A DNA stretch of 64,000 bases from Chthonomonadia bacterium. Its GTDB lineage: Bacteria; Armatimonadota; HRBIN16. The stretch lies in the NCBI GenBank assembly GCA_013314755.1, contig JABUFA010000018.1:1472-65471 (forward strand), read 5' to 3'. The notes under the pieces were generated by a model. That model worked only from the letters and a program-made list of their open reading frames with translations, searched no databases and was not told where the DNA came from. Positions 32,263 through 64,000 of this stretch are shown one piece after another; position 1 is the first letter of the stretch, and every line of letters begins with the position of its first letter. The position numbers and the translations under genes are program-made.

Positions 32263-32288
32263 GGGCAGGAGGGAGCCTCCTCCTGCCC
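32263..32288. terminator. possible bidirectional hairpin terminator between the convergent tricorn and epsI genes
   Basis: GGGCAGGAGGG-AGCC-TCCTCCTGCCC (10 of 11 bp stem) immediately after the tricorn stop. It abuts the epsI stop. Confidence 0.4.
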
Positions 32289-32974
32289 TATATTACTTCT
32301 GGTAGTGTCTGCTTGAGCGCGCTGAACAGCTCGGAGGCAAACTGCTGGATGGTGGCTACATCCTTCTGCACATCCCCAGATGCGGGCACGATGAACCGGA
32401 AGAAAAAGGTCTGCTGTCTCTGCATGCCTATCAGGCGTGCCGTGAAGGTGGAGACGCGCGCCAGTCCCATAGAGCCCGTGGTGCCAAAAGGCGTACGATA
32501 CCAGTAGATGACGGTCGCCCGTCTGCCGTTGTTGTTCACCTGGAACAGTCTGGCATGGAATTCCTGGGGCACGCCGGGCACGCTGAACTTTATCTCGCGG
32601 TCGTTCTCCAGCTTCCACCCCTGACTCGGGAAGCAAGCATGCGGATTATGGAAGGTCTCCGCGTGAGTGCCCGCCAGCAGAACAAAGTCTATCTGGTCAC
32701 CCTTTTCGTTGAAGTAATGGCGTGACACGATAGCATCGGGGCGCAATGCCTCGAACGCCTTCGCTCCCATATCGTACCGCTGACCAATCCAACCACCCAG
32801 CTGGAATGGAATGAGCGAGTCGTCAATGTCACGAAGCACCTTGCCACGCAGGGGAGACAGCGTCAGCGTGAGTATCGCCGCCAGCGCCATAAACGCTAGC
32901 AGGATCAGCATGTTGCGATACAGAAGAGGGCGAACCGATTGCTCTGTTGAGGTTACCGTTGCCATCCCAACCAC
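32288..32974 (-). CDS. epsI: exosortase-associated EpsI family protein
   Basis: N-terminal TM plus a periplasmic domain of about 190 aa. Overlaps the upstream exosortase by 22 nt. Family-level sequence pattern only. Confidence 0.65.
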   Translation of the reverse strand: MVGMATVTSTEQSVRPLLYRNMLILLAFMALAAILTLTLSPLRGKVLRDIDDSLIPFQLGGWIGQRYDMGAKAFEALRPDAIVSRHYFNEKGDQIDFVLLAGTHAETFHNPHACFPSQGWKLENDREIKFSVPGVPQEFHARLFQVNNNGRRATVIYWYRTPFGTTGSMGLARVSTFTARLIGMQRQQTFFFRFIVPASGDVQKDVATIQQFASELFSALKQTLPEVI

Positions 32975-33825
32975 CTTCCCAGCTGAAAGAGCACAGCGAA
33001 CGCTACCACCAGCACCAGATAGCCACTCCAGTCGTGGAAGGAGTATCCCGCCTCCTCGCCAAACTTTGTGCCCACGATGCCTATCAGAGCGATACGTAAA
33101 CCGTTAATCACCAGCGCCAGAGGCAGTGCCAACACTATCAGCGCTATCTGCCTCCACAGCTCCACGCGAATATAATACGCAAAGAAGAACGCGAATGTCG
33201 CCATAGATACCAGCATTTTGAAGCCACTGCAGGGTACACCCACATCTAAGTCAAATCCGCCAGGGATATAGATGACGTTCCCCACCCGGTGCGTTTCATA
33301 TCCTATCGTCTTAAGCAGGACATTTGCGATAATCGTGGACCATTCCTGAGCGGGCTGTGAAATCTCATCAAAAATAGTGGCTGGCAACGGCATCATGAAC
33401 CCTAAGAAGAGTACAGGGAACCACACGATGCGCACAAACCGCCATCCCAGCAAAGAGGCAATCATACCGTACATCAGGACGAGGAAAGACAGGGACGAGA
33501 TGGTGGAGGACTGAGTCAGATGCCCCAGCACGCGCATGGCGAGCGCAAGCGCAACCGGCACCAGTCCCCCCGTGCTGGGGGAGATTGCTGTTTGACGGAG
33601 CTCCTCGCGGCGCATCCAGACCATATATAGCGCGAGGAAGGGCACCAGGATGCCGTGCGAATAATATCCATCCGAACGGAACCAGTGATATTGCCAGTAG
33701 TAGAACACGGGATAATAGGCGACCACCAGTGCCACCAGCACGCCGGCTGCTACCCATGCCAGCGGGTTCTGCACCAGCCGCCCCACAGGAACCCCTGTGA
33801 GCCGCCCCACACGCACTTCACTCAT
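32953..33825 (-). CDS. exosortase (exosortase/archaeosortase family, EpsH-like)
   Basis: Eight-TM profile with conserved GVPCSGF (active-site Cys) and Arg residues. 290 aa, typical exosortase size. Confidence 0.75.
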   Translation of the reverse strand: MSEVRVGRLTGVPVGRLVQNPLAWVAAGVLVALVVAYYPVFYYWQYHWFRSDGYYSHGILVPFLALYMVWMRREELRQTAISPSTGGLVPVALALAMRVLGHLTQSSTISSLSFLVLMYGMIASLLGWRFVRIVWFPVLFLGFMMPLPATIFDEISQPAQEWSTIIANVLLKTIGYETHRVGNVIYIPGGFDLDVGVPCSGFKMLVSMATFAFFFAYYIRVELWRQIALIVLALPLALVINGLRIALIGIVGTKFGEEAGYSFHDWSGYLVLVVAFAVLFQLGRWLGWQR

Positions 33826-34292
33826 TGTACTTTCACCGTCCCCTTTCGCCCGAACGTCCAGTGTTTATTGGCAAAGAAGTTCCAGAATACCACGATACCC
33901 GTTGCCAGCAATTTCGCGCCGTTGAAGACCCATTTGGGGTGCGGGTCGTGAGGGTCAAACAACAGCAGGGCGCTGACAATACTGTAGTTTAACAGCGCGC
34001 CGACAATATTGACCGCGACGAAACGCAGGAACTCCTCATGCACCGCACCGCGCTGACGGTCGCGAAACGTCCAGCGACTGTTCCAGAAGTAACCGTTGAA
34101 CACCGCCACACAAAACCCCATCACACTGGCAAGCGCCGCAGGGCGCACGTGTAACAGGTAGTACGCGATATTTGCCACTGCGAAGTCTATCAGCGTACTG
34201 CTGGTGCCAACGATACAGAACTTGATAAATTGTCGAACCCCTTTTCTGCGCAGCTGAGCTGTTACCCAGCCGGTTAGCGAGTTGCCGTTCAT
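33822..34292 (-). CDS. GtrA family membrane protein (polysaccharide synthesis / lipid-linked sugar translocation accessory)
   Basis: 156 aa, four TM helices. Motif FIKFCIVGTSSTLIDFAVANIAYY is typical of GtrA. Confidence 0.75.
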   Translation of the reverse strand: MNGNSLTGWVTAQLRRKGVRQFIKFCIVGTSSTLIDFAVANIAYYLLHVRPAALASVMGFCVAVFNGYFWNSRWTFRDRQRGAVHEEFLRFVAVNIVGALLNYSIVSALLLFDPHDPHPKWVFNGAKLLATGIVVFWNFFANKHWTFGRKGTVKVQ

Positions 34293-34301
34293 GCATATCT
34301 C

Positions 34302-35249
34302 CTACCGCAGAATTGCCCAGATAGCCACCGCTATCCACAACAGTATTGTGGCTTGAATCCCTCGGTCCTCCATCAATACCTGTTCAGGAGCACCACCCAG
34401 GTCTTTCCTGTGCACCAGATACAGATACCGAAAGATGCCGTACATCACGATAGGTATAGTATACTTCAATCCCTCGTGCTGTGCGGCGGTTGCGCTCTGT
34501 ATGGTGTACAGCGCGTAGGTGATAATGGTTGCCGAGCTGACTATCGCAATAAACTGGTCTAACAGACCAACGCTGTATTCACCCAGAGTGACGCGATGGT
34601 TGAATGCCTCTTCTCCCAGGGTAGCCAGCTCATGCCTGCGCTTGCAAAAGCCCAGGAAAAGCGCCAACAGGGTGGTGCAAGCCAGCAACCAGCCCGATAT
34701 ACTCACGTCAATAGCCACCGCTCCTGCCAGCGCGCGAAGCACGAACCCTGCAGCAATCAGGAACACGTCCAGGATCACTATCTGCTTCCCGCCAAGTGAA
34801 TACCCCAGCGACAGAAGCACATACAACACCGCCAGCCAGCCAAACGCCGGGCGTATCCAGAACGCCAGCAACAATCCCACCGCCATCGCGCCGCTCATGA
34901 ACCACCCTGCAACCGTGACGGGAAGTCTCCCGGAAGCGATGGGGCGTTGTCGCTTCTGGGGATGCAGGCGGTCGCGCTCCACGTCCTGCAGGTCGTTATA
35001 GATATATACCGCGCCTGAAATGAGGCAGAAGCTCACAAACGCCAGGATATTCAGCCATACCCTGGGGACGTCTCCCAGCTTCTCGGCAAAGAGCAGTCCG
35101 GCAAAGAGCAGAAAGTTCTTGCTCCACTGGCGCGGGCGCATCGCCACCACGCTCCACTTGAGCCATTCCAAGGGGTGCGTCCGTGCCACAGAAACCTGGT
35201 TTTCCTCAAAACTTTCCATCCACATACCCGCTTGAACCGCTGTTCTCAA
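34302..35249 (-). CDS. UbiA-family prenyltransferase, decaprenyl-phosphate phosphoribosyltransferase (DPPR synthase)-like
   Basis: YIYNDLQDVERDRLHPQKRQRPIASG gives the NDxxDxxxD motif and a DPPR-synthase-like loop. Polytopic membrane protein. Overlaps the neighbouring genes by 4 nt. Confidence 0.7.
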   Translation of the reverse strand: MRTAVQAGMWMESFEENQVSVARTHPLEWLKWSVVAMRPRQWSKNFLLFAGLLFAEKLGDVPRVWLNILAFVSFCLISGAVYIYNDLQDVERDRLHPQKRQRPIASGRLPVTVAGWFMSGAMAVGLLLAFWIRPAFGWLAVLYVLLSLGYSLGGKQIVILDVFLIAAGFVLRALAGAVAIDVSISGWLLACTTLLALFLGFCKRRHELATLGEEAFNHRVTLGEYSVGLLDQFIAIVSSATIITYALYTIQSATAAQHEGLKYTIPIVMYGIFRYLYLVHRKDLGGAPEQVLMEDRGIQATILLWIAVAIWAILR

Positions 35250-35959
35250 CAGGCTCCTTTACCGGTAATCACCGCGGGCACGGTAAACAAAAGGATTTTC
35301 AGGTCGGTCCAGAAACTCATCGTATCAAGGTAAATGTGGTCAAGCTCCACCCATTCGCGGAATCCGATGTCGCTCCGTCCGCTGATTTGCCACAGGCAGG
35401 TCAATCCTGGCAGCACGCTCAGCCGGCGCATCTCCCACTCGCCGTAGCTTGCTACCTCAGAAGGCAGTGGCGGACGCGGACCGACCAGACTCATTTCCCC
35501 GTGAAGCACGTGGATGAGCTGAGGCAGTTCGTCCAGACTGTACCGGCGCAGAAACCGTCCCACGCGGGTGACGCGCGGGTCATTGCGCATTTTGAAGACC
35601 GGACCGCCTCTCACCTCGTTTTTGGTGATGAGTTCACGTTTCATCTGCTCGGCGTTCTTCACCATCGAGCGAAACTTGAAAAACCAAAACGGCTTGCCAC
35701 CTCTGCCGATGCGTACCTGCCTGAAAAGCACCGGACCCGGCGAGTCCAGTTTAATCGCGATAGCAATCAACAGCATCAGCGGTGCGAGCAGTATCAGCGC
35801 AACGCTCGCTACCGTAACATCCAGAACGCGCTTGGCGATGCGATAGCCTCTGGGCAATTCAATCACGGGCACACTTATCTGCAACTCCGCCGCACCTGCC
35901 TCTCCCACAGCGGGAGGCACGATGCCCGGAAGCGGTGTTTGTGCATGTGCCATGGTCAC
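35246..35959 (-). CDS. polyprenyl glycosylphosphotransferase (bacterial sugar transferase, WbaP/EpsB-like priming enzyme)
   Basis: Bac_transf signature KFRSM...DELPQL...GEMSLVGPRP...PGLTCLWQISGRSD. Confidence 0.8.
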   Translation of the reverse strand: MTMAHAQTPLPGIVPPAVGEAGAAELQISVPVIELPRGYRIAKRVLDVTVASVALILLAPLMLLIAIAIKLDSPGPVLFRQVRIGRGGKPFWFFKFRSMVKNAEQMKRELITKNEVRGGPVFKMRNDPRVTRVGRFLRRYSLDELPQLIHVLHGEMSLVGPRPPLPSEVASYGEWEMRRLSVLPGLTCLWQISGRSDIGFREWVELDHIYLDTMSFWTDLKILLFTVPAVITGKGAC

Positions 35960-36058
35960 TCAAGCTCCCTTCGTCCAAAAATGACCGCAGTTTCGTAATC
36001 AATAGGCGAATCCCTCCGTCTCTATTACGCGAACCAAAGCGAACCGAGTTCACCCTTC

Positions 36059-38245
36059 CTATCCTCTGGGTAGCGCGCGCGATGCCGACTGACGCAACGC
36101 CAGCTCGCGATATGCCCGACGATAATAGTAGACGCCCCGGCTGTCCTCCGGGCGCACTTTGTTCAGCACCGCGCCGATCAGGTTTGCTCCCACCTGCTCA
36201 AGACGAGCGTGGAACTCGGCTTCTGCTCCCCGCGAGGGCTGTCCCGCCGCGTGTACGATTATCACGTTCTTCACGTGTGCCGCAATCAGGGTGCTGTCCG
36301 CAAAGATAGCTCCTGCTGGCGAGTCGAAAATCACAAAGTCTGCCAGCCGGGTCGTTCGTTCAATGAACTGTTCCATCATCGGGGAGCGCAGGAGCCGTAC
36401 AGGGTTGTTTGACGATGAGCCTGCCGGTATCAGCACCAGTCCCTCGATCATGGTGGGTACAGCAACGTCCTCAATGGACTTCTCACCAGCAAGCACGTCC
36501 GCCAGCCCTAACGAGTTATCCACCCCGAACCGGCTGTGGAGTGTGGGCTGGCGCATGTCGCCGTCCACCAGCAGTACCCGTGCTCCGTCACGTGCCAGCG
36601 TGATGGCGAGATTCGCTGCCGTGGTGCTTCGTCCCACGTTCGGCTCAGCACTGGCGATAACTACTGCCGACCCCTGCATCTGGCGGCTGGCATACCACAG
36701 GTTGGTGGACAGTATCTGGTAGGACGCACCGATGGGCGTGAAACCGTCCTGCTTATCGAGCGCGTTCGGCTTCATCAGCGGGATGACGGCAAACACCGGC
36801 AGCTTGAGCAAACGCTCGGCTTCCTCCGGCGTGCGCACCGAAGTATCCAGCTGCCCTAACAACAGCACCACACTGCTTGCCAGAATAAGCGACAACAGCA
36901 GCGCCAGCGCGGTCTTCAGTCCTGTCTGCTTGGGCACAGCGAACACCTGTGGCGGGTCAAGCAGGACCAGGGTTGCCGCCTGAGCGCCGCGCTCTCGCGC
37001 CCGTGCCTCTTCCAGCTTTTGTAGGTACAGGTTATAGGTTTGCTCAGCGGTGCGGGCTGCCAGCTCAAGGCGGGCGACCCCGGCTTCCTTGCGCGGCATA
37101 TCCGCCAGCTCCGCCAGCGCGCGACGCAGGGGTTCCGCGTAAGCCTGTGCGCGTTTCGCAGCGGCTTCCTCCGCGACGCGCGCAGCGATGTACGCCTGCA
37201 GGGCGGAGTCGCGGATGGGGTTGCGTGCGCGCGTTTGCGAGTTCAGAATCTGTTCGCTCTCGGTGCGCATTCGCGCCTCAATCTCGGCAATCTGCGCCTT
37301 AAGCGATACCACGTCCGGGTGACGCTCCGCTTTGGTCTGAAGCTCCTTTTGCAGTTCTGCCTGCGCCCGAGCTAGGTCAATGCGCAACTGCTGCAGCACA
37401 GGGTTGGTTGCCATGATGCGCTGCATCTCTTCGTATTCGTTGCGGGCATACTGGCTCTTTAGCTCCTGCTCGGCGGCGATTCGTCGCGCCCGCGCCTCTT
37501 CCATCTCCACCATTGCCTGATCGTAGTTCGCCCGATATTGCGCCGCGCGTTGCACCAGTACCTGTGTCTGGAAAGCCAGATCACCACTGATGCGGTTCGC
37601 CAGCTTATAGTCAGCGAGCGCCTTGCGCTTGGCTTCGAGGTCGGCTCTGGCGCGGGGCAGGAGGTCGTTTTCGATGCGCTCACGTTCGGTGCGCAGCGAT
37701 CCCTGCGTCAGCTCGTTGTACCGCTCGGTCGCCTTCGCCGTCAGCACGCTGAGCGCGACCAGAGCGTTCTGGGGGTCGGTGTCGCGCAGGCGCACGCGAA
37801 GGTACTCCGTGTTAGGAATGGGCTCCGCCCGTACCTTGCCGCTGAATGCCACGATTTGCTCGGGACCAGTCTCCCCTTCAAGCACGCCGGGGCGAACTAC
37901 CTGCAGCTCGCTGACAGTTCTGCCCAACACCGTGTTACTGACCACCATCTGCAAGAGATTCTGCTGGCGCAGCACAGGGTCGTTCACCAGAACGCGCGAG
38001 GGGAAAATCTCGGTCGTGGTCTCGCCGACCGGACGCTGCTCGCGCAGAACGGCAACGGCTTCATACTGCTGGGGGGCTGAGCGCGACCACATCAACACCG
38101 CGCCTGTACACAGCACCACCACCAGCGCGATGATACGCCATCGCCGCTTCAAAATCATATAATGACGCCAGAACTCCACGGATGATTCGCCTCCTTTAGT
38201 ACCTGTAGAATGCCTTGTTAAACAGGATATTCCTTGTGATACCAA
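36059..38245 (-). CDS. polysaccharide co-polymerase / BY-kinase (Wzz domain + tyrosine autokinase, Wzc/GumC-like)
   Basis: N-terminal VEFWRHYMILKRRWRII plus a TM. Long coiled-coil periplasmic region and a second TM. P-loop ASAEPNVGRSTTAANLA. C-terminal Tyr cluster GVYYYRRAY. Confidence 0.8.
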   Translation of the reverse strand: MVSQGISCLTRHSTGTKGGESSVEFWRHYMILKRRWRIIALVVVLCTGAVLMWSRSAPQQYEAVAVLREQRPVGETTTEIFPSRVLVNDPVLRQQNLLQMVVSNTVLGRTVSELQVVRPGVLEGETGPEQIVAFSGKVRAEPIPNTEYLRVRLRDTDPQNALVALSVLTAKATERYNELTQGSLRTERERIENDLLPRARADLEAKRKALADYKLANRISGDLAFQTQVLVQRAAQYRANYDQAMVEMEEARARRIAAEQELKSQYARNEYEEMQRIMATNPVLQQLRIDLARAQAELQKELQTKAERHPDVVSLKAQIAEIEARMRTESEQILNSQTRARNPIRDSALQAYIAARVAEEAAAKRAQAYAEPLRRALAELADMPRKEAGVARLELAARTAEQTYNLYLQKLEEARARERGAQAATLVLLDPPQVFAVPKQTGLKTALALLLSLILASSVVLLLGQLDTSVRTPEEAERLLKLPVFAVIPLMKPNALDKQDGFTPIGASYQILSTNLWYASRQMQGSAVVIASAEPNVGRSTTAANLAITLARDGARVLLVDGDMRQPTLHSRFGVDNSLGLADVLAGEKSIEDVAVPTMIEGLVLIPAGSSSNNPVRLLRSPMMEQFIERTTRLADFVIFDSPAGAIFADSTLIAAHVKNVIIVHAAGQPSRGAEAEFHARLEQVGANLIGAVLNKVRPEDSRGVYYYRRAYRELALRQSASRALPRG

Positions 38246-39152
38246 TCGTTGCCACGACGCTGTATATCTGGTTCCAGTCGGGTTTCTTCACCTCGGGAAC
38301 GTACACGGTGTCGCCCGGCTGGAGGGCAATATCCTGCGAAGTGTCTCCCTTGTCGATGAGCTTGAGCAGGTTCACCACGATGCGCTGCGGTTTGTCGGGC
38401 GCGTCGGGATTGGGGCGAATGATGTACACCTTGCTCAGCGTACCCTTCTCATGCTGCCCTCCCGCCCGGTTGATGGCTTCCATGACCGTGGTGCTGTTCT
38501 TCCAGGGATACAGTCCAGGGCGCATGACCTTGCCCAGCACATAGATGCGGTTGACCACGTCTTCGGGAATGAAGATAACATCATCAGGCTGCAGGCGATA
38601 GTTCTGGCTCAGGTCGCCCTTGAAGAACAGCTTCTCCAGGTCTAAGGGGATGGTTTCTTCGGTGCCATCGGGGCGTTTTCGACGAAGCAGAGCATCCTTC
38701 AAACGGGCGCGGTCAGGGTCAAAGCTGCCCGCCATGGAGATAGCGTGCATCACGGTCTCGCCCTCTTTGAACTCGTAGGACCCCGGGCGCTGCACCATCC
38801 CAAGCACTGCCACACGCGGGCGGTTAATCACGCGGATACTCACGCTGACATGCGGGTCACGCAGATATTGCGCTTCAATGAGCGCAGTGCGGATTTTCTC
38901 TGCCAGCTCGCCTGTGGTCAATCCGCGCACGGTGATACTGCCCACCACGGGCAGGTTTATCGTGCCATCCTGTGCCACCACGGTTTCCCGGCTGAGGTTC
39001 GGGTCCTCTACTACCGTGATTTGCAGCACGTCATCACGTTGTATTCGATAGTCATCGGCAACTGCTGTCCATGCGCTGAGGCTCAGCAACAGCAGTGCTA
39101 TCCAGCAGATTCTCATCACTTGTCGCCTCCTTCTATCATTGCGCTTTGTCAC
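38196..39152 (-). CDS. polysaccharide export protein (Wza-like, Poly_export + SLBB domains)
   Basis: Signal peptide; DYRIQRDDVLQITV polysaccharide-export motif; repeated SLBB-like segments. Overlaps the BY-kinase start by 50 nt. Confidence 0.75.
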   Translation of the reverse strand: MTKRNDRRRRQVMRICWIALLLLSLSAWTAVADDYRIQRDDVLQITVVEDPNLSRETVVAQDGTINLPVVGSITVRGLTTGELAEKIRTALIEAQYLRDPHVSVSIRVINRPRVAVLGMVQRPGSYEFKEGETVMHAISMAGSFDPDRARLKDALLRRKRPDGTEETIPLDLEKLFFKGDLSQNYRLQPDDVIFIPEDVVNRIYVLGKVMRPGLYPWKNSTTVMEAINRAGGQHEKGTLSKVYIIRPNPDAPDKPQRIVVNLLKLIDKGDTSQDIALQPGDTVYVPEVKKPDWNQIYSVVATIGITRNILFNKAFYRY

Positions 39153-44671: not shown

Positions 44672-45712
44672 CTAACCTGATGGGAACAGACTGTAGGTGT
44701 TCTCCTGGCTCCCTGGCAAAACGCCCCAATACATTGCCCTCTTTGTCCAAAGCAACACACACCTGCCGTATGGATGTGGCTTACTATCATTGTAAGCAAG
44801 CCAAATTAAGAACAGGTTGTCGGCTGAATGCCGGGCTGCGCCCTCCACACGCCCTGGTAAAACACGTATTCGTCGCAGGCAGCCTGCGCCATCAAACACA
44901 AAGATTAGTCCGCACCTGTCACGTCCCTGAAGATGTCCTACCGCCACCAGAACGCGAGCTCCGTCGCGTGTTACCGCACACCAGAACGCCATCATCCGGG
45001 TTTGCTTCTCATGTTCACGGCGCCATTCCTCTACTATCGGCTCTCCTGTAACAGATTGGATACGCGCCAGCGTTTCCCATACAGGCAGAGCAGATGTCCA
45101 TCGTTCCCCGCTGGTAGCGTCGAAACTGACCACCCTGTAAGCTTTCGAACCTCCCGAAAGAACGATGGCTTGATACCGATCGTTGATATTGCCACAAAAC
45201 TGGCTCCAGCTCTCGTGAATGAGACCCCACCCAGCTGGAGGCTTCCACTGCCATACTACTTCTTCCCACTCATCCAGACCAAGCGCAGGAGTGTTGGGAG
45301 ACCGCCAGCGTAAATGCTTGCGAACTGCCTTGAGGCTAACAACTGACGGACCCGCGCCACCAGTGCCTATTATTTTGCTGAGGTTAACAGGTTCGGAAAG
45401 CACCCCCTTAATATGTGGGTACGGAAAGACCAAAGCATACATGGAGCTAGGATCTTTGTCAGGATTATCCCATACCGACGAGTGCAGTTCGCGATGAGTC
45501 AAAGAGGATGGAAGCCCCATCGACTTGTAAAGCCCGTATCCCTCTTCGCTGGATCCTGTCCACGTGGGGTACAGGGGAGGAACCATCTTGGTCCACTCCC
45601 AGTTTGACTCTACATCAAACTTCACCGTGGAGATGCTCTCCTGGGCGTGTGCACATGCTGACAGTACCAGTATCATCACGCTGAGGCTGCATATTGTGGT
45701 TCGGTTTCTCAT
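44672..45712 (-). CDS. secreted hypothetical protein
   Basis: Signal peptide MRNRTTICSLSVMILVLSACAHA. 346 aa, no recognised domain. Confidence 0.45.
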   Translation of the reverse strand: MRNRTTICSLSVMILVLSACAHAQESISTVKFDVESNWEWTKMVPPLYPTWTGSSEEGYGLYKSMGLPSSLTHRELHSSVWDNPDKDPSSMYALVFPYPHIKGVLSEPVNLSKIIGTGGAGPSVVSLKAVRKHLRWRSPNTPALGLDEWEEVVWQWKPPAGWGLIHESWSQFCGNINDRYQAIVLSGGSKAYRVVSFDATSGERWTSALPVWETLARIQSVTGEPIVEEWRREHEKQTRMMAFWCAVTRDGARVLVAVGHLQGRDRCGLIFVFDGAGCLRRIRVLPGRVEGAARHSADNLFLIWLAYNDSKPHPYGRCVLLWTKRAMYWGVLPGSQENTYSLFPSG

Positions 45713-53480: not shown

Positions 53481-53509
53481 TTGACAGCCTGCGCCAGAAG
53501 CAGTATAAA
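53481..53509 (+). promoter_or_regulatory. sigma70-like promoter (TTGACA-17-TATAAA) of the four-gene envelope operon
   Basis: TTGACA at 53481-53486, 17-nt spacer, TATAAA at 53504-53509. The track ATG at 53509 overlaps the -10, so the GTG at 53539 with a GGGAGGTG SD is the likelier start. Confidence 0.55.
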
Positions 53510-53538
53510 TGGAGTGTATCCCGGGAAGGGAGGTGAAG

Positions 53539-54525
53539 GTGTTGGTTCGCAAACAACTTATTTTGTTTATCATACTCCTCGCCGTCCCCAACGCCGTCGC
53601 GTTCGGCAACCAGCAACCCATGCCTGTGCTGGCGGTCTCAGACTTCTCCGGAGACAGTCCCGCGCTGTGCCAGGCGGTGACCGAGACTGTCCTGACCGAC
53701 CTTGCCAAGTCGCGCAAGCTGACGCTGGTAGAACGAGCACAGCTGCGCCAGGCAATGAACGAACTGCGTCTGCAGAGGTCGGGACTGACCGAAGCTGGCG
53801 ACATGGCTCACGCGGGCAGGCTGGTCGGCGCCACGCATGTGGTGGTGGGAAGTGTCCTCGTTAACGAGGGGAGAGTGATCCTGAACGCTCGCGTGCTCGA
53901 TGTGCACACCGGCACCCTGTACGCGGGCGCGGCGGAGAACACCGAGGGCTGGAGCGACGAACTGTTCGCACTTGCACACGACCTGGCGAACCGCCTGCAT
54001 CATCGGCTGACAGGGGAAACTCTGCCCGGCTTTACGGAGCCAGCCCCCGCCTCATCCGATGCAAAGGTTGTTCCGACGGTGGCTGCTCCAGTGCCCACGC
54101 CTGACTGGGAAAACCTGCCGGAGAGCCCCGCCATTGCTCACGCACTGGGCAGGGGCTGGATGCGTCTGTTTGCCGATGGTTCGTTCCGCCCGCATGAGCT
54201 GGTCAGCGAACGTTACTTCTATGAGACCCTGCGCCGCCTTGCCCGTCGCTACGAGCTGGACGACTCGCGCTGTTTCCCCAAAGGCGACGGTTCCGCGACG
54301 CTTACTCGAATCTCCGCAGTGCGCGCAGTGGCTTCGCTGATTTCAGGGGAACCCTCCTATTTTCTGGAGGTGCCGGCGTGGGCGGTACCGTGGTTGGGGG
54401 ACAGCCCACACAAGCCTCTTAACCGCAGGCAGTTTGCCGCGCTATTACAGCTGGCGGAAGAACAGCTCCAGCGCAGGATAACATCCGCAGGTTCAGCACC
54501 GTCTGTAACTGCGGTGGAGCGTTAA
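53539..54525 (+). CDS. secreted protein with CsgG/LpoB/FlgO-like N-terminal domain + SLH-like domains
   Basis: Signal peptide (M)LVRKQLILFIILLAVPNAVAFG. N-domain pattern AVSDF...LTDLAKS.KL.LVERAQL..A..EL.LQ.SGL.....A...G.L.GA..VV.GS........NARV.DV.TG. SLH-like GWMRLFADGSFRPHELVSERYFYETLRRLA. Confidence 0.55.
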   Translation: MLVRKQLILFIILLAVPNAVAFGNQQPMPVLAVSDFSGDSPALCQAVTETVLTDLAKSRKLTLVERAQLRQAMNELRLQRSGLTEAGDMAHAGRLVGATHVVVGSVLVNEGRVILNARVLDVHTGTLYAGAAENTEGWSDELFALAHDLANRLHHRLTGETLPGFTEPAPASSDAKVVPTVAAPVPTPDWENLPESPAIAHALGRGWMRLFADGSFRPHELVSERYFYETLRRLARRYELDDSRCFPKGDGSATLTRISAVRAVASLISGEPSYFLEVPAWAVPWLGDSPHKPLNRRQFAALLQLAEEQLQRRITSAGSAPSVTAVER

Positions 54526-54549
54526 GGCATAGAGAAAGGGAGATGCCCG

Positions 54550-55848
54550 ATGTTGAGAAAGTTCTTGCTTACCGTCTTGCTCGGCGCACAGATGGCATGT
54601 GCGTCGGCACAGATGATCGCCGTCAGCGATTTCGCTGGTAAACCACCGGAAATTGGGCAGGAGATTGCCGAAACGCTGATTACCGACCTCGCTAAGTCCG
54701 AAAGGCTTAACCTGGTGGAACGGGCGCAGCTTTGGCAGGCGTTACGCGAACTGCGCCTGCAAACGACCGGATTAACCGAGCCAGCGCAGGCAAAGCGAGT
54801 CGGCAAACTGATTGGCGCCGAGGCACTCGTTGTCGGCAGCTTCTACTTGCGCGACGGGCAGATAGTCATCAATGCGCGTGTCGTGGATGTGCGCACCGGT
54901 CAGGTGATGAAGGGAAAGGCTGAGAACGTACAGGGGAAACTGACCGAACTGTACTCTCTGCTCGGTACTCTGGCGAACCGGCTTCACCTGCGACTGACGG
55001 GAGTCCAGCTGGCTTCAGCAGAACCGAGTAACCCGCCTGCCGAGTCCGAACCGATAGAGATTCTTGACGCCGACGGTGATGAGGACATCATCTATGTGGT
55101 TCAGCAGGGGTGGATGCGCTGCACGCCAGAAGGCTATTTCTACCCCGACAAGCCTGTCACGGCGGGTGACTTTTACCGGGTGCTGCTTCGGTTCGCCTCA
55201 GCTCGGAAATGGGAGGGGAAGATGGAGTTTGACAACTCCCGCCCGGGCGACCTGATGAACACCCTGCGTCCGGTTGTGACCCTGACGCGGCTGGCATTGC
55301 CTCCCGAGCGGTTCAGCGAACAGCCTCCCGTTGAGGGTGCACTTGCGCTTATACCAGGGTGGGCACGTCCGTATGTCTATGAAGCCCTGCAACAGGGCTA
55401 CATTCGCGACATCTCTGAAGCCTCGCCCCATCAGGTGTTGACGCGCAGACAGCTCGCCAAACTGTTGACACGAATGGTACCGCTTCCTCCTACCTTCAAA
55501 CTGCCAGCCGACAAGTGGACAGGTCTGGTTGTGGACACCACGGGGCTGGGAATGCGTTCCAGTATGTGCCCACGCATCGTGGATGAGAAGAACCGGTTGG
55601 TTTACCTGGAACCGAAATACGCACCACCCTGGGATTATGCTCAGCAATACGGTATCGCTGATTTCGTCAAGAGGGAAGACCAGACGAAGCGTGCAGGCGA
55701 CAAACCCGTATACGTCAAGGCGTTACGGGTCAAAGGCCCAGCCAAAGACGAGGTGGTAATCAGCGTGGAGGACGCCGAGCGCGTTCTGGATGCAGCGAAA
55801 GAAAGCAGATTCTTGAGGCTATGGCGAGTGGTCTTTCTGGTGGACTGA
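54550..55848 (+). CDS. secreted paralog: CsgG/LpoB-like N-domain + SLH-like domain + C-terminal domain shared with the 56967 gene
   Basis: Signal peptide MLRKFLLTVLLGAQMACASAQ. Same N-domain pattern as the 53539 protein (IAVSDF...LVERAQL...NARVVDVRTG). The C-terminus LVVDTTGLGMRSSMCPRIVDEKNRLVYLE...RVVFLVD parallels SVIIDTRGLGVRPAMSPKIRRQDGSEVWG...RVIFVID in the 56967 gene. Confidence 0.55.
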   Translation: MLRKFLLTVLLGAQMACASAQMIAVSDFAGKPPEIGQEIAETLITDLAKSERLNLVERAQLWQALRELRLQTTGLTEPAQAKRVGKLIGAEALVVGSFYLRDGQIVINARVVDVRTGQVMKGKAENVQGKLTELYSLLGTLANRLHLRLTGVQLASAEPSNPPAESEPIEILDADGDEDIIYVVQQGWMRCTPEGYFYPDKPVTAGDFYRVLLRFASARKWEGKMEFDNSRPGDLMNTLRPVVTLTRLALPPERFSEQPPVEGALALIPGWARPYVYEALQQGYIRDISEASPHQVLTRRQLAKLLTRMVPLPPTFKLPADKWTGLVVDTTGLGMRSSMCPRIVDEKNRLVYLEPKYAPPWDYAQQYGIADFVKREDQTKRAGDKPVYVKALRVKGPAKDEVVISVEDAERVLDAAKESRFLRLWRVVFLVD

Positions 55849-55849
55849 A

Positions 55850-56935
55850 ATGCGCATCCTCGCAGGGATATTGGCTTTGATACTGGGGACAGCTGTGCTG
55901 GCAGCGGCGCAGTCGGATATTGTGGTTGAGGCGTCGGGTATGTCCGCCATCCGCGCCGACCGCGCCGCTGCCATTGAGGAGGCGGTGCAGGACGCCAAAC
56001 GCAACGCAGTGGAGCAGGCGCTGGGCGTGCTGGTCAACGCCGAGGCGCTGGCGCAGAACTATGAGGTGGTGTGGGAGACCATTCGCACGCGCAGTACGGG
56101 CTATGTCCGGCGATGGGAGAGGCTCGGCGAGCCGGAATGGGATACGCGCAATGGACTGGTAAAGGTTCGTATCCGCGCGGTGGTGAGCGCGGCGGATGCT
56201 GTGAAAGACCTGTGGGAGATACCAGAAGTCTACGTCGCGCTGGAACGTCCGCGTGTCGGGGTGAAACTGCTCTCTGCGGACACTCGGCAGCCCGAGCCGC
56301 ACAGTACTTCCACGTTGATACATGCCCTGCGGGTGCGAGGGTTCGACGTGGCGGACAGCCACAGCGGTTCAGCGGAGGTGTTAATCACCGGCACCGTGCG
56401 TACCGAGGCGGGCATCAGGCTGGGTGACACGGACGCACCATACGGATTGGGCAATGTGGTGGCATCATACAAGGCGTACGCAGAGGTGCGCGTGGTGTGG
56501 GCGGATACCGGAGCGGTCATCGTGCCGTTGTTCCGCTGGGAGTGCGCCGGTTTCAGCTTCAACTCTAACGAGGAGGCACGGCAGGAGGCTCTGCGCAACC
56601 TGGGGCGCGAGCTGGTTGAAGAGAAGCAGGGTGCACTGAGCCAGAAGGTGCTGAGCGCGTGGATCACACAGTTGCAAAACGGATTGCGCGTGCAGCTGGT
56701 GGTGCGCGGAGTGGATTACCGAACGCTCTCTCAACTTTCGGACAGACTGCGTGACCTTCGTGGCGTCGTCAGCATCGAGCGCGAGCGCATGGAGGCAGGG
56801 GAGGGGATTATTGAAGCGGTTGTGCGACTGACGCCCGCTACTTTTCGCCGTCAGCTGATGCGGATGCAGATAGGCACAAAACGGCTATCCATCCTGCGCT
56901 ACTCGCCGAGCCTGGTGCGTCTGGCACTGCGCTAA
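55850..56935 (+). CDS. secreted LPP20/FlgP-like lipoprotein-family protein with two further beta-rich domains
   Basis: Signal peptide. N-terminal AAIEEAVQDAKRNAVEQALGVLV is an LPP20/FlgP-type motif. 1-nt spacing from the upstream gene suggests translational coupling. Confidence 0.5.
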   Translation: MRILAGILALILGTAVLAAAQSDIVVEASGMSAIRADRAAAIEEAVQDAKRNAVEQALGVLVNAEALAQNYEVVWETIRTRSTGYVRRWERLGEPEWDTRNGLVKVRIRAVVSAADAVKDLWEIPEVYVALERPRVGVKLLSADTRQPEPHSTSTLIHALRVRGFDVADSHSGSAEVLITGTVRTEAGIRLGDTDAPYGLGNVVASYKAYAEVRVVWADTGAVIVPLFRWECAGFSFNSNEEARQEALRNLGRELVEEKQGALSQKVLSAWITQLQNGLRVQLVVRGVDYRTLSQLSDRLRDLRGVVSIERERMEAGEGIIEAVVRLTPATFRRQLMRMQIGTKRLSILRYSPSLVRLALR

Positions 56936-56966
56936 GAATACAACAACCCGGAAGGAGATTTGCACA

Positions 56967-57869
56967 ATGAGATACTGGACAATCGTGCTGTGCGCTCTTG
57001 TCTGCGGGGCTGCCTTTGCGCAGACAGCTCCCAAAACGAGCCAGATGGTCGGTCTGGTGGAGAAAGTCGGAGACAAGGGCAAGATCGACTGGCAGTACGG
57101 GGTTATCTACGGTAAGGGGGTGGGTGCTATCCCCACCAACGAACCCAACAAGGCGAAGGCATACCTGAAGGCGCGCCGTTACGCCGTGATGACCGCGCTG
57201 GAGAACCTGTTGATGGTCACCGATAAAGTGCGCGTGGACGCGACCGCCTATGCAGAGGACTTCGAGGCGAAGAGTGAGCGCATTCGCACAGAGGTGCGCG
57301 GCTTCGTGAAGGGCGCTGAGGTGATAAACGAACGAACCATCACTCTTAACGGTGCGCCCGCGGTCGAGGTGACCATGGCGGTACGGATGTACGGCGATGA
57401 AGGGTTAAGCCGAATCCTGATACCCGAGGTGGCGGCGCAGTCTTCTACACCAAGCACCCTGCCTGTGGTTACGAAACCCGTTGCCAAATCCGCTCCTGCG
57501 CCTGCCCCACCACAGGAGACGAGTAACGCCTATACCAGCGTGATTATCGACACACGTGGGTTAGGCGTTCGCCCTGCGATGAGTCCCAAAATCCGCCGGC
57601 AGGACGGCAGTGAGGTATGGGGCACGGTCGGTGCCAGTTACGACTTCGTGATCGAACAGGGCATCGTGGTGTACGCCAAGACCCTCGAGGAGGCGAAGGC
57701 GCACAGGCGTGCAGGAAGCAATCCGCTGATACTGCGGGCGATTGGGTACGCGAAAACGCCCGGACGCTGTGACCCGGTGCTCTCCGATAACGATGTGCGC
57801 CTGCTGTTGACGGCAAACGACAACTCAGGCTTCCTGAACGAGTATCGGGTGATATTCGTGATAGATTAG
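56967..57869 (+). CDS. secreted LPP20-like protein with the shared C-terminal domain
   Basis: Signal peptide MRYWTIVLCALVCGAAFA with a GGAAGGAG SD. N-terminal KAKAYLKARRYAVMTALENLLMV. C-terminal domain ending RVIFVID, homologous to the C-terminus of the 54550 gene. Confidence 0.5.
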   Translation: MRYWTIVLCALVCGAAFAQTAPKTSQMVGLVEKVGDKGKIDWQYGVIYGKGVGAIPTNEPNKAKAYLKARRYAVMTALENLLMVTDKVRVDATAYAEDFEAKSERIRTEVRGFVKGAEVINERTITLNGAPAVEVTMAVRMYGDEGLSRILIPEVAAQSSTPSTLPVVTKPVAKSAPAPAPPQETSNAYTSVIIDTRGLGVRPAMSPKIRRQDGSEVWGTVGASYDFVIEQGIVVYAKTLEEAKAHRRAGSNPLILRAIGYAKTPGRCDPVLSDNDVRLLLTANDNSGFLNEYRVIFVID

Positions 57870-58138
57870 TATCGGTTCACAATCCCACAGCCCCCTCCCG
57901 GTGGGAGGTATCCTGTCTGGCGAGAGGGCTGTGGGCACTCCTGGTGATGGGATAAAGAACGGGTGCTCTATTCTGGTGTTTGCCCTTTCAGGCGCCTCAG
58001 CTCTTCCTCCAGACCCTGGGAGTCTGCGTGACAGCCATTTACCTCACCTCATCCCTATTATACCCGAAGGCAAGAGGAAGCTCCTTCGCTGATAGCCAAA
58101 GAAATCAAGGTGTAAACATTCTGCAGGAGGAGCATAGG

Positions 58139-62200: not shown

Positions 62201-62748
62201 GCGAGCGACGAGCAGCGGGCGACCGTTTGCTGTTCACGACCGACGGGCAGCAGGCTTTGGACACACCTTACCTCGCCACCGAACGGCTCCTGCCCCTGTA
62301 CTGCTTTGTCTACGACGTGGAGGGCTACGAGTTCTGGGGCTTCTCGTGGTGGACGCATAACCCCTGGCAGAAGGGCTGGCATCAGTACATTCTGCAGAGC
62401 GACCAGGGGCAGGATTTCTACTGGATACGCTACCCCAACGGCGACGGGTATCTGGCGTACCCTTCGCCGGCAGGGGGAACCGGTCCCGCCCCAAGCATCC
62501 GCCTGAAGGCAGTGCGTGAAGGCGCAGAGGACTACGAGTATTACCTGCTGTGGCAGGAGGCGGTGGAGCGTGCACGCCAGCGGGGACAGGACGTCTCTTC
62601 AGCCGAGGCACTGCGCCGGCAGATGGAATCGCTGGTGCCGATACCCAACGCCGGCGGACTGCGCTCGACGCAGATACTGCCTGACCCGGATGCGGTCTAC
62701 CGTCTGCGACAGGAGATAGCCCGACAGATTTTGCGGTGGCAGGAGTAA
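59266..62748 (+). CDS. secreted multi-domain carbohydrate-active protein with two CBM4/9-like modules and a DUF4091-like C-terminal domain
   Basis: Start MRTLVTALTAILLLSLSCSAQA with a GGGAGGG SD. CBM-like NGGFEEG...WYDDVSLE and REGDFES...WHDGVIF. C-terminal VTVWNFILPK region as in DUF4091 proteins. Confidence 0.6.
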   Translation: MRTLVTALTAILLLSLSCSAQALWHTDLWGGSAGYWRLRVPVLVQNRSSSDVKGYVLNLRIGDGEGELPLAGQPQEKLRICNSQGTEFLYEVISSGRASAVLRKGDEIRFAVDVPANGRETYYVYTGNPVALPGDSLPLRASLRNGGFEEGQRSPAHWSAGLTSPQHLAQYRRQEGRNGSACVYHRVVQGAPPAWVQWSQANILVTPGRRYILRGWVRARNTKGQVGYYVHVNGVRPQMVNIVQSAGEGTYDWRQVEIRFEVPPGGQTATVGTVLYGEGEAWYDDVSLEAEGDGASAPVRWQVLPLEERRLKPILARHDVWDKTWLVRASVLVRNFEPDAVQRAVTISLPRAVHMVRRLAGIVQTPLRVQVVDPQSGRTLPATWIGDTLCFEARLQPLSEHRFDVYLSREQAGKESLDNYQKLLHSPANMAREGDFESRERVFELWSPGGEATGAQGFTAEVVSPGRFGKNALRLHVPPERQPDWLGWRLLNVPVRPNTRYLYTAWVKTQGITGGTVDIHGHFKAADNSLAKGAQFFSSGRRLSGDSDWTLCSAEVVTPADAHHVELHLTMNTHGTLWHDGVIFMPVEQGVVLRVEANPALLPRDALSVWQVNPLVKVFPDDPPRPTSKQVAIACARNEWEPLQIALWSSKPLQKVSIRISPLRHASGATLPPPRLYRVLTVPVDIPTNYYVSRLPQYCRHVPRGAPSCDGWAGEWPDPLMQGDTFDLPARRTQVVWIDCYVPQGAPAGEYRGTLAVLAGQKQLVQIPLRVTVWNFILPKRSHLRIVYDLRSGPGWDVTDGERTETLRQWYRLMAEHRVNPDVVLPMPEFRVEGGQIVMDASRFEPMARYAFDELGFNHCYTPWVFYALGWAYPLAPKFGFAPRTLEYEKTLREAYAQLVDYFTRNGWRDRLIYYLSDEPHLNNPQVVADLRYFISIIKPVAPDVPIFSSTWYHSPELDGYLTMWGIGQFGGFPVQKMRERRAAGDRLLFTTDGQQALDTPYLATERLLPLYCFVYDVEGYEFWGFSWWTHNPWQKGWHQYILQSDQGQDFYWIRYPNGDGYLAYPSPAGGTGPAPSIRLKAVREGAEDYEYYLLWQEAVERARQRGQDVSSAEALRRQMESLVPIPNAGGLRSTQILPDPDAVYRLRQEIARQILRWQE

Positions 62749-62763
62749 CGGAAAGGAGGGACA

Positions 62764-64000
62764 GATGCAGGCGATTCAGGCACGTCTCGTCCTCTTCGCC
62801 GACAAGTCGCTCGGCAGGGTGAACCGCTGGATATTCGGCAACAACATGCTGGGCTATCAGAAGGGAGGCTGGCCCCACGCCGAGCCGGTGTACCACGACC
62901 GCGGGGCTGGCATCTGGGACCCCGAGCGAAGACGCCCTGTGCCTGAGATGGTCGCGCTGGCTCGCAACATCGGGCTGAGTGTGGCACGCTATCCCGGCGG
63001 ATGCGGAGTGCACCTTTTTGACTGGAAACGGACGGTGGGACCGCTGGAGGACCGCCCTGAACAGCAGTTCGGTTTGCCCGAGTTCCTGCGCTGTTGCGAG
63101 GCGATGGGGGCGATACCGCTCATCACCATTGCCGATTACTTCGGCACGGCGCAGGACGCCGCCGATATGGTGGAGTATCTGAACGCTCCAGCCGATGCCC
63201 GTCATTCCTGGGCGCAGGTCAGACGGCGCGACGGCAGAAGCCAGCCATGGAATGTCGTCTACTTTGAGTACGGCAACGAAACCGAGCATGGGGACCACCG
63301 CTCGCGCCGGATGAGCCCGCAGGAGTACGCGCGGAACTACTTGGAGTACCGCCGGGCGATGAAGGCAGTGGATAGCCGCATCAAGCTGGGAGCGGTGGTG
63401 GCGACGGGCTTTCCCAGACTGGACGAGTGGGCGCGTCCGGTGCTGAAAATTATCGGTAAAGAGGTGGACTTTGTCATCCATCACAGCTACCTTCCCACCT
63501 ACTATCGCGACGACGGCGTACCTCCTGCCGGGGAGTTGTTCGCACTCGCGCTTGCGTGCCCCGACCAGATACAGAGCTACTACGACGACCTGCGTCGTCT
63601 GCTTCGTGAAACCACCGGACGCGACAACGTGCCCATCGCCGTCACCGAGTTCAACGGGCATTTTGTGCAGGAGAAGCCGGTCCCTTACCGTCATACGCTG
63701 GGAAACGCCCTGCTGAACGCCGAGATGCTGAGGGTGTTCTTGAACCCGAAAAACCGTATCCTGATGGCGAACTTCTGGCAGTTCTGCAACGAATACTGGG
63801 GGGCGGTGAAGGGCTACGTGCACCTGGGCGAACCGCTGGTGAAGCGACCGCAGTATTATCCCTTCGAACTCTACCACCACCACTTTGGAGACGATCTGGT
63901 GGAAGCAAAGGTGGAATGTGCGCGGTTTGAAGTAGAGGGCGGTTATGGCGTCGCTCCAGCACGCGGGAAGGGGCATTCGGGAGGCGTAACAGGCGCACCG
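62764..64000 (+). CDS. glycoside hydrolase family 51 alpha-L-arabinofuranosidase, 3'-truncated by the window end
   Basis: GGAGGG SD and ATG at 62764. GH51 acid/base YFEYGNETE and nucleophile IAVTEFN. The ORF continues beyond 64000. Confidence 0.75.

Follow-up and report, generated by a model that had tools for sequence, protein, structure and literature searches.

In Vibrio cholerae, a 26-mer ring of FlgT is surrounded by concentric 58-mer rings made of FlgO and FlgP (bioRxiv 10.64898/2025.12.02.691832), and an insert located between the helix and strand 2 of FlgP has been tied to ring formation (PMC12222027). The D2 domain of Tp0624 from Treponema pallidum was found only together with D1 in the 2016 Tp0624 paper. 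SLH-based tethering is the native system in Armatimonadetes. The locus described here is a four-gene operon (G1 to G4 in the order of transcription) from a Chthonomonadia bacterium of the phylum Armatimonadota; it lies in a 64,000-nt stretch of contig JABUFA010000018.1 (assembly GCA_013314755.1), the whole of which is referred to as the window. The operon is conserved and previously unannotated: its products carry only hypothetical or generic names (TolB-like, FlgO family, CsgG/HfaB family), and no Pfam domain is present in two of the four.

Organization and Conservation of the Operon

ORF inspection of the window places the four co-directional genes at positions 53539-57869 of the plus strand with gaps of 24 nt, 1 nt (TGA-a-ATG) and 31 nt (Table 1), in agreement with the earlier note on this DNA, and G3 is translationally coupled to G2. 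The near-consensus promoter that the same note placed ahead of G1 was read directly from the sequence and is of the housekeeping sigma-70-like rather than the sigma-28-like type; a motif scanner passed over it solely through its requirement for T at position 6. Both the -35 and -10 boxes and the leader that follows (GTAtCCCGGGA..GGGAGGTG) are kept in 9/9 orthologous four-gene loci, unlike the surrounding DNA, which diverges. The start of G1 is most likely the GTG at 53539, 5 nt past the Shine-Dalgarno sequence, because the corresponding position is where the orthologues start, with MVRK...; an ATG at 53509 is disfavoured. At the other end of the operon, the hairpin region (57865-57985) folds at -52.7 kcal/mol (z -3.0), and the next gene downstream (Gfo/Idh/MocA) probably starts near 58140.

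Table 1. Features of the operon in the window, with predicted domains of the products.
Feature	Position	Strand	Description	Basis
Promoter	53481..53509	+	Sigma-70-type: TTGACA (53481-86), 17-nt spacer, TATAAA (53504-09)	Direct sequence reading
Leader	53510..53538	+	Conserved 5′ leader with Shine-Dalgarno GGGAGG (53528-33)	Sequence reading, comparison of orthologous loci
G1	53539..54525	+	Signal peptide; CsgG/LpoB/FlgO-clan domain (~53605-54021); putative SLH-like motifs (~54103-54207, ~54355-54470); without D2	Pfam, comparison with G2
G2	54550..55848	+	Signal peptide; CsgG/LpoB/FlgO-clan domain (54601-55005); putative SLH-like motif 1 (~55072-55194) and motif 2 (~55321-55473); Tp0624-D2-like C-terminal domain (55507-55845)	Pfam, family profile against PDB
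G3	55850..56935	+	Signal peptide; SHS2 (FlgP/LPP20-like) domain with insert (55916-56188); LptE/CsgG/TolB_N-like middle domain (56255-56617); ferredoxin-like C-terminal domain (56684-56929)	
G4	56967..57869	+	Signal peptide; FlgP-like SHS2 domain with insert (57057-57386); Pro/Ala-rich linker; Tp0624-D2-like C-terminal domain (57522-57866)	
Hairpin	57884..57935	+	GC-rich, 15 nt beyond the G4 stop codon, without U-tract; operon 3′ boundary	RNA fold

The genes are kept together as a cassette across Armatimonadota, and the conserved unit is G2-G3-G4 rather than all four genes. Cassette loci comprise eight with four genes and ∼13 with three, the latter including the culturable Chthonomonas calidirosea, and the same four-gene operon is present in HRBIN16-class MAGs (KatS3mg022_3646-3649). 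The scan of genome contigs, a pattern-limited one, returned only Armatimonadota; it missed C. calidirosea itself and is therefore silent on absence of the cassette from the non-motile Fimbriimonas, Armatimonas and Capsulimonas. G1, which shares 38% identity with G2 and has orthologues confined to eight close loci (L005-L012), is by sequence comparison a duplicate of G2 specific to this clade and without the C-terminal domain. The tight co-conservation of the remaining three genes, together with their translational coupling, suggests a stoichiometric complex. Flanking genes differ in every lineage examined, so that the polysaccharide-enzyme neighbourhood, previously regarded as meaningful context, is incidental. 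The glycoside hydrolases nearby are kept only within the closest clade, and a functional tie to them was rejected for this reason.

G4-like paralogues also occur within single MAGs. Solo G4-like copies adjoin an ABC-2 exporter module of ABC_tran and ABC2_membrane_2 genes in 9-11 loci, not flagellar genes; a 196-aa protein of this ABC-linked context gave no sequence match in the PDB.

Domain Composition of the Encoded Proteins

On inspection, each of the four N-termini has an n-region with K/R, a hydrophobic core and a site of the AxA type, and N-terminal helices in the AF2 predictions lend support to the signal peptides claimed earlier for each product. Lipobox-like motifs are found in only 1/30 members of the G1/G2 family, 4/56 of the G4 family and 0/21 of the G3 family. 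The operon products are predicted to be Sec-exported, non-lipidated periplasmic proteins.

G3 and G4 had been proposed to begin with LPP20/FlgP-type motifs. LPP20 (PF02169) gives no Pfam match to either protein at E ≤ 1 and matches 4/56 members of the G4 family (best E 9.3e-4), but the relationship emerges from profile comparisons. The best PDB match of the G4-family profile is Campylobacter jejuni FlgP (9hmf_C, E 4.9e-10), which aligns without gaps through the hairpin insert, and Vibrio FlgP structures (9yfg, 9yec, and 9yds) are matched at E 1.5e-3 to 6e-3. The match of the G3 profile to solved FlgP is weaker (E 0.026); the N-domain of G3 is homologous to that of G4 (hhalign probability 95%, E 3.4e-8). 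The SHS2 fold of FlgP/LPP20, in which a helix lies across a sheet of three strands, was found, as was an insert of FlgP-matching length, which is aligned without gaps between G4 and FlgP and likewise between G3 and G4. The insert (G4 89-111, G3 60-82) is exactly the stretch in which confidence of the AF2 monomers drops below 50, as expected of a hairpin that becomes ordered only in an oligomer. LipL46, the sole single-sequence Pfam/NCBIfam match for G3/G4, is weak (E 8.8e-4) and far under cut-off, and was rejected.

The fold of G3 matches those of the ring-forming proteins LptE, CsgG, PelC, TraT, and FlgT, and the model points to a FlgT-like N-M layout in which the SHS2 domain is followed by a LptE/CsgG/PelC/TolB_N-like domain. 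FlgT itself combines an SHS2-like N, a TolB_N-like M and a beta-roll C domain. Neither FlgT_N nor FlgT_M nor FlgT_C (Pfam models) matches G3 of the window, and FlgT_N is matched by 1/21 members of its family (E 4.2e-4). Profile and structure evidence strengthen the analogy to the FlgO/FlgP/FlgT ring builders that had been drawn earlier.

The N-domains of G1 and G2 belong to the CsgG/LpoB/FlgO clan, as the earlier note had stated. G1 is matched by the Pfam models CsgG (E 9e-9) and LpoB (4.8e-7), and G2 by CsgG (2.6e-12), TolB_N (2.3e-6), and FlgO (4.9e-4), with SLH sub-threshold in both (0.17 and 0.12, respectively). CsgG (PF03783) scores 47.0 bits for G2 and 35.4 bits for G1 against a gathering score of 20.8, with only model positions 33-99 of 210 covered, while FlgO (PF17680), at 20.4 and 18.8 bits, respectively, falls under its gathering score of 22.6; the LpoB match is weaker than that to CsgG and far under the NCBIfam equivalog cut-offs. 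At E ≤ 1e-3, CsgG is detected in 30/30 family members, LpoB in 27/30, and FlgO in 23/30 (best 1.5e-7), and close homologues are named 'FlgO family outer membrane protein' by NCBI. Searched against the PDB, the family profile matches CsgG (3.7e-6), LpoB (3e-3), and Tp0624 (0.0099), and does not match solved Vibrio FlgO at E ≤ 10.

SLH modules, attributed earlier to G1 and G2, are retained here as SLH-like motifs, of which the family alignment contains only two per protein. SLH (PF00395) reaches E ≤ 0.1 in 19/30 family members and E ≤ 1e-3 in 9/30 (best 2.1e-5), but in the window proteins it scores 12.3 (G1) and 12.8 bits (G2), under the gathering score of 20.8, and hhalign comparison of the family with the canonical 3xSLH protein P0262 matched the D2 end only and no SLH. 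A polymer-binding SLH module is built from three repeats (or by trimerisation) and binds pyruvylated wall polymer. The motifs are best described as putative, divergent wall-binding-like modules.

The C-terminal domains of G2 and G4 share 30% identity across 117 aa (E 3e-14), with family-level cross-matches of 1e-14 to 1e-21. That they share a domain was correctly recognized from the sequence; its supposed novelty was not upheld, since it shows both sequence and fold homology to D2 of Tp0624 (5JIR residues ∼198-317). D2 has no Pfam model. Its family is very large (∼2,570 clusters at 50% identity), and this size points to a general role in the envelope. It is not restricted to D1-D2 pairs, being found also alone, fused to SLH+FecR, and with other partners, and it co-occurs in other proteins with canonical 3xSLH, LPP20, and FlgO domains. 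In G4, which ends with D2 and gives no Pfam match to OmpA, the invariant polar and aromatic residues P207, G214, E216, W218, G219, Y236, and D269 are compatible with a ligand site.

Possible Functions of the Operon

The operon products probably form a wall-tethered scaffold in the periplasm, ring- or disk-shaped and akin to the outer rings of flagellar motors. The fuller statement, that this scaffold surrounds the flagellar basal body as an analogue of the H-ring or basal disk, is more tentative, with a probability of roughly 0.4. In such an assembly, G4 would polymerise laterally via the FlgP-type hairpin, G2 (and G1) would supply a partner ring, comparable to that of FlgO beside FlgP in Vibrio, and G3 would act as an adaptor. 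The SLH-like motifs of G1/G2 could fix the assembly to a peptidoglycan-linked polymer, in the way that OmpM of this diderm phylum is held through SLH, standing in for the N-terminal lipid anchors of proteobacterial FlgO/FlgP, and the D2 domains of G2 and G4 may be a common docking or ligand-binding module. A generalization to Armatimonadota as diderm Terrabacteria in which FlgO-, FlgT-, and FlgP-like subunits make up an outer disk of the flagellum, held to the wall through SLH-like modules rather than lipid-anchored to the outer membrane and with D2 as the shared docking domain, is speculative and somewhat doubtful.

Flagellar genes were found neither in the window, the earlier note having seen none nearby, nor among the annotated neighbours at five other loci. 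The conclusion that the locus is non-flagellar is not thereby established, as it rests only on these absent neighbours and the hosts are described as flagellated: in secondary sources, C. calidirosea is given as motile and Chthonomonadetes MAG Ch118 as encoding flagella (PMC7509429), and HRBIN16-class MAGs are likewise reported to encode flagella (PMC9671151). Apart from the cassette, operons in the C. calidirosea genome are dispersed, the genome being notably non-operonic (PMC4959169); because this motile organism is organized in such a way, the absence of flagellar neighbours is weak evidence. An association with flagella is no less probable than its absence. The points that speak against a flagellar scaffold are the sigma-70 promoter, the G4-like paralogues, the large D2 family, the lack of lipid anchors, the sub-threshold LPP20, FlgT, and SLH matches, and the lack of flagellar neighbours.

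Nearly as likely as a flagellar scaffold is the reading of the earlier note, in which the same wall-tethered ring or lattice is independent of flagella. It would then serve as a periplasmic spacer, an organiser of outer membrane and wall, or a collar around some other trans-envelope machine, for example a type IV pilus/T2SS secretin or a polysaccharide/ABC exporter, much as PelC rings PelB. The LPP20 and CsgG-like clans are mostly non-flagellar. This favours a flagellum-independent role, as do the absence of flagellar genes near any inspected locus, the conserved sigma-70-type promoter, the paralogues beside ABC modules, the wide distribution of D2 with its SLH+FecR and other fusions, the precedent of TsaP (LysM and FlgT-C-like domains) ringing PilQ, and the proposal of Tp0624 as an organiser of envelope and peptidoglycan. 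Against it, among characterised proteins the best matches to the three families (FlgP, FlgO, and FlgT) are all flagellar, the trio of FlgO-, FlgT-, and FlgP-like proteins specifically mirrors the Vibrio H-ring, host lineages are flagellated according to the secondary sources cited above, and no secretin or exporter gene was found conserved beside the cassette.

It is rather unlikely that no ring is formed and that the products are individual periplasmic factors associated with peptidoglycan or the outer membrane, for example LpoB-like peptidoglycan-synthase modulators or Tp0624/RmpM-like wall-positioning tethers with D2 as a ligand-binding domain. The LpoB and TolB_N matches and SLH-like motifs of G1/G2, the many invariant residues in D2 of G4 and the models proposed for Tp0624 would fit such factors, whereas the FlgP-type insert in two subunits, the tight co-conservation and coupling of three genes, and the secondary rank of the LpoB match argue otherwise. 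A curli-like outer-membrane secretion channel of the CsgG type with accessory factors is suggested by CsgG being the top Pfam match, above its gathering score, yet is close to refuted by the partial coverage of that model, the short domain, the lack of a lipobox and the absence of curli partners, no CsgA/B/E/F-like genes being present in the window. The domain comprises ∼135 aa, the size of LpoB/FlgO, whereas full-length CsgG has two transmembrane hairpins that make up its nonameric barrel. In the PDB profile alignment, the 89 profile positions 40-128 span 116 residues of CsgG (58-173), which fits loss of a CsgG insert; the missing part would be a transmembrane hairpin.

FlgP/FlgO/FlgT-type ring builders, the Tp0624 D2 fold and SLH-type wall anchoring in a Terrabacteria diderm are newly connected by this operon. 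A wall-fastened flagellar outer disk in Armatimonadota, if true, would place H-ring/basal-disk ancestry outside Proteobacteria and Campylobacterota and provide a first function for the D1-D2 unit of Tp0624 from the syphilis spirochaete. If the scaffold is flagellar, it would widen the evolutionary range of accessory motor disks and show an alternative anchoring solution; if not, it represents a candidate for a new type of scaffold in the periplasm, from a phylum that has received little study.

Comparison with Known Systems

For comparison with the Vibrio H-ring (FlgO, FlgP, and FlgT), FlgO-like genes are here co-operonic with a FlgP-like gene. The operon products differ from the H-ring proteins in being without lipoboxes and in their added SLH-like motifs and D2 domains, and the C-terminal domain of G3 is ferredoxin-like, not the FlgT-C beta-roll of Vibrio FlgT. 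Furthermore, the FlgO, FlgT, and LPP20 Pfam scores in the window are under gathering thresholds, no link to flagellar genes is seen, and the host phylum belongs to Terrabacteria rather than Proteobacteria. FlgP of the C. jejuni basal disk is the closest match for the N-domain of G4, and FlgQ looks like a repeat of FlgP, which has a parallel in G3 as the operon's second FlgP-like protein. C. jejuni FlgP is, however, a 171-aa lipoprotein without D2, no FlgQ-like tandem repeat is present here, and a disk is here only predicted. In the Helicobacter pylori Lpp20 cluster (HP1454, HP1456, and HP1457) the proteins are lipoproteins or secreted and are without the ring insert (PMC12222027); the cluster also lacks CsgG-clan, SLH, and D2 parts, and no sequence-level match to it was found.

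Tp0624 (PDB 5JIR) shares the D2 fold but adds an OmpA-like D3, and its signal peptide is uncleaved or atypical, whereas here D2 also follows a FlgO-like and SLH-like region (G2) and forms the end of G4. The N-domains of G1/G2 and the middle domain of G3 share the CsgG/LpoB/TolB_N/LptE/PelC fold class, several members of which ring under the outer membrane. In length the G1/G2 domain falls well short of CsgG, consistent with absence of the CsgG membrane hairpins, and the lipid anchors and partner proteins of those systems are missing. TsaP/PilQ and OmpM/SlpA follow the same principle as that proposed here. They are built from other domains (TsaP from LysM and FlgT-C, OmpM with a beta-barrel), and the likeness, one of mechanism and not of homology, would lie in a peptidoglycan-binding module that holds a periplasmic ring or connector.

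Organization of the operon

The four co-directional secreted-protein genes of the operon (G1, G2, G3 and G4, in order) encode FlgO-like (duplicated), FlgT-like N-M and FlgP-like proteins, annotated as hypothetical, which most likely (probability about 0.7) make up a periplasmic ring or disk tethered to the wall. As the earlier note had read them, the genes are separated by 24, 1 and 31 nt and lie behind a single near-consensus promoter; by inspection, each product begins with a typical Sec signal peptide. The promoter looks like a real one of the housekeeping type; both hexamers and a leader ending GGGAGGTG are kept in 9/9 sequences (the window and eight orthologous four-gene loci), and the DNA flanking these elements shows no conservation in the same alignment. 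An automated promoter scan passed it over only because that scan demands T at position 6. Since the orthologues begin MVRK..., the start of G1 is placed at GTG 53539, 5 nt past a Shine-Dalgarno site, rather than at ATG 53509. Good Shine-Dalgarno sites precede G2 and G4; translation of G3 is coupled to that of G2 (TGA-a-ATG). The strong hairpin that follows G4 has no U-tract and may represent a variant of a Rho-independent-like terminator or serve to stabilize the mRNA; the next gene begins ∼270 nt downstream of G4. Lipoboxes were essentially absent in a survey of members of the G1/G2, G3 and G4 families.

Coordinates of features in the window and in homologous loci
Feature	Location	Strand	Remarks
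-35 box TTGACA	53481-86	+	upstream of G1
-10 box TATAAA	53504-09	+	17-nt spacer from TTGACA
G1	53509/53539-54525	+	ORF
G2	54550-55848	+	ORF
G3	55850-56935	+	ORF
G4	56967-57869	+	ORF
GC-rich hairpin	57884-57935	+	directly 3′ of G4 stop codon; z = -3.0
Large ORF	5273-7234	-	
Large ORF	10222-12807	-	
Large ORF	15490-16692	-	
Large ORF	44672-45712	-	
Large ORF	62234-63976	-	
GH18/CE4/GT2 protein	25507-29076	-	1,189 aa
Tricorn-like protease	29100-32255	+	1,051 aa
Exopolysaccharide/exosortase cluster	32288-39152	-	
CsgG-like protein	L003 4831-5778		315 aa
Tandem G4-like genes	L038 1258-4856		three paralogues, one Armatimonadota MAG
Solo G4-like gene and ABC module	L004 1657-4886		
Solo G4-like gene and ABC module	L023 4916-7410		
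Solo G4-like gene and ABC module	L027, L028, L029, L033, L048, L049, L053		

Domains of the four proteins

A CsgG/LpoB/FlgO-type N-domain in the first two products is confirmed by the Pfam CsgG model (E 9e-9 for G1 and 2.6e-12 for G2), with LpoB, TolB_N and FlgO also matching; across the G1/G2 family, matches at E≤1e-3 were obtained to CsgG in 30/30 members, LpoB in 27/30, TolB_N in 24/30 and FlgO in 23/30. For the proposed SLH-like modules, alignment revealed two SLH-reading motifs in the middle region (GWMR..PDG.F.PD.PVT..F.RVL and P.WARPYV..A...GY....SPH..LTRRQLA.LL) and Pfam SLH reaches E≤1e-3 in 9/30 relatives, although the window proteins themselves are sub-threshold (E 0.17 for G1, 0.12 for G2). 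In one lineage the first gene of the cassette (the conserved core G2-G3-G4) encodes instead a CsgG-like protein whose alpha/beta domain has additional insertions and which lacks both the SLH-like motifs and the shared C-terminal domain; this protein may be closer to true CsgG.

The LPP20/FlgP-type start ascribed to the last two products eluded a Pfam scan of G4, which gave no match, but was recovered by profile comparison. The N-domain of a G4 profile (56 sequences) matches chain 9hmf_C, identified as Campylobacter jejuni FlgP (PMC12222027), at E 4.9e-10, with weaker matches to Vibrio FlgP chains. The N-domains of G3 and G4 are homologous to each other by hhalign (probability 95%, E 3.4e-8). 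The homology takes in the helix-to-strand 2 segment; in FlgP this segment is the beta-hairpin from which the continuous sheet of every disk ring is built, and its presence tracks ring formation across the family (PMC12222027). In the AF2 model of G3 (pLDDT 79), an SHS2 N-domain is followed by an alpha/beta middle domain and then by a C-terminal domain of ferredoxin-like fold; monomer confidence falls below 50 exactly at the helix-to-strand 2 segment in both G3 and G4.

The C-terminal domain common to G2 and G4 is real (30% identity, E 3e-14) but not, as had been thought, unrecognized: the C-domain of the G4 profile matches domain D2 of Treponema pallidum Tp0624 (5jir_B; E 1.3e-11), and the shared domain is thus assigned the Tp0624-D2 fold. 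Residues E216, W218, Y236 and D269 of G4 are invariant. Its depositors described D2 as an uncharacterized fold without structural analogue, seen only with D1 (PMC5104382). A two-sequence profile searched against 1.84 billion representatives recovered 2,571 D2 clusters at E≤1e-3, nearly always with D2 at the C-terminus of proteins of 98-791 aa; among other combinations, D2 is joined to FecR with three canonical SLH domains, to LPP20 and to FlgO, and stand-alone forms occur in the fetched loci. The metagenomic protein P0262 (529 aa) carries three canonical SLH domains (E 3.6e-43), FecR and D2, an architecture that provides independent evidence for D2 working at the cell wall.

Distribution and gene neighborhood

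The operon products match hypothetical proteins of a Chthonomonadetes MAG at 100% identity, and named homologues are all from Armatimonadota, except for a few MAG records labeled Firmicutes/Bacillota or just "bacterium." In the neighborhood survey that the earlier note had proposed, using family HMMs over 54 fetched loci, G2-G3-G4 recurred as a unit: four genes in 8 loci of a close HRBIN16-like clade, and three genes in about 13, Chthonomonas calidirosea among them. G3 and G4 only were found in about 5 loci (order inverted in Fimbriimonadales), and a G4-like gene alone or beside a stand-alone D2-domain protein in about 16. G1 is a duplicate of G2 that is specific to one clade and lacks the C-terminal domain. 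In C. calidirosea the genes have stayed clustered, which is striking in a genome known for dispersing even its his, trp and pur operons (PMC4959169).

Genes flanking the cassette differ completely from lineage to lineage. The cassette thus stands as a unit of its own, and the GH10, GH123 and GH42-like glycoside hydrolases that surround it in the window are incidental. The exopolysaccharide/exosortase cluster (exosortase EpsH, DUF3485 (EpsI-like), a UbiA-family protein, an initiating sugar transferase, a P-loop chain-length-regulator-like protein and a Wza-like Poly_export/SLBB protein) is likewise not conserved beside the cassette in other loci.

Elsewhere in the window, an unusual hydrolase-deacetylase-synthase fusion joins GH18, polysaccharide deacetylase (CE4) and GT2/chitin-synthase-like domains, and the tricorn-like protease gene (PD40 repeats, Tricorn_C1, Peptidase_S41) is divergent from it. 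One of five large minus-strand ORFs encodes a DUF6785/DUF6784 protein; for the other four (861, 400, 346 and 580 aa) Pfam gave no match.

Solo G4-like genes (FlgP-like plus D2), usually with a stand-alone D2-domain protein, adjoin in varying orientation a module of an ABC ATPase, an ABC2_membrane_2 permease, a 72-aa His-rich membrane peptide and a ∼196-aa protein, often with a cyclophilin (9-11 loci, different lineages).

Flagellar and non-flagellar roles

The earlier note suggested a non-flagellar system, and no flagellar genes were found within the 64-kb window or among the annotated neighbors of other loci. This absence is weak evidence. C. jejuni flgPQ, likewise, are not known to lie in a flagellar cluster. 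C. calidirosea is a motile species, and flagella are encoded by a related Chthonomonadetes MAG (PMC7509429); the four-gene operon is found in HRBIN16-class Katase MAGs (KatS3mg022_3646-3649), which are reported to encode flagella (PMC9671151). A flagellar disk is, tentatively, the favored reading. Against a flagellar role speak the sigma-70 type promoter, the G4 paralogues inside single MAGs, the recurrence of solo G4-like genes in a second setting, next to an ABC-2 exporter module, and the very wide spread of D2. A scaffold independent of the flagellum is nearly as likely.

Wall-associated factors that do not oligomerize are less likely, and a CsgG-type channel is highly improbable. The G1/G2 N-domain was rejected as a CsgG pore, being a small LpoB/FlgO-sized version of the fold whose match takes up only ∼1/3 of the CsgG model; in the alignment to solved CsgG, 89 profile positions span 116 residues.

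Comparison with the Vibrio H-ring

All domains but D2 belong to described families, and the structure of D2 has been solved, so the kind of system is known; no account of an Armatimonadota trio of non-lipidated FlgO-, FlgT- and FlgP-like proteins that carries SLH-like motifs and D2 was found in the literature searched. The Vibrio H-ring is built by FlgO, FlgT and FlgP, with 58 FlgP and 58 FlgO in concentric rings around 26 FlgT (bioRxiv 10.64898/2025.12.02.691832), and the operon encodes a like trio. Unlike their Vibrio counterparts, the window proteins are without lipid anchors, for which SLH-like modules in the periplasm would stand in; such a substitution is plausible because Armatimonadetes, as diderm Terrabacteria, tether the outer membrane through SLH-bearing OmpM. 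The window proteins also differ from those of Vibrio in having SLH-like motifs on the FlgO-like subunits, and D2 on both the FlgO-like and FlgP-like subunits.
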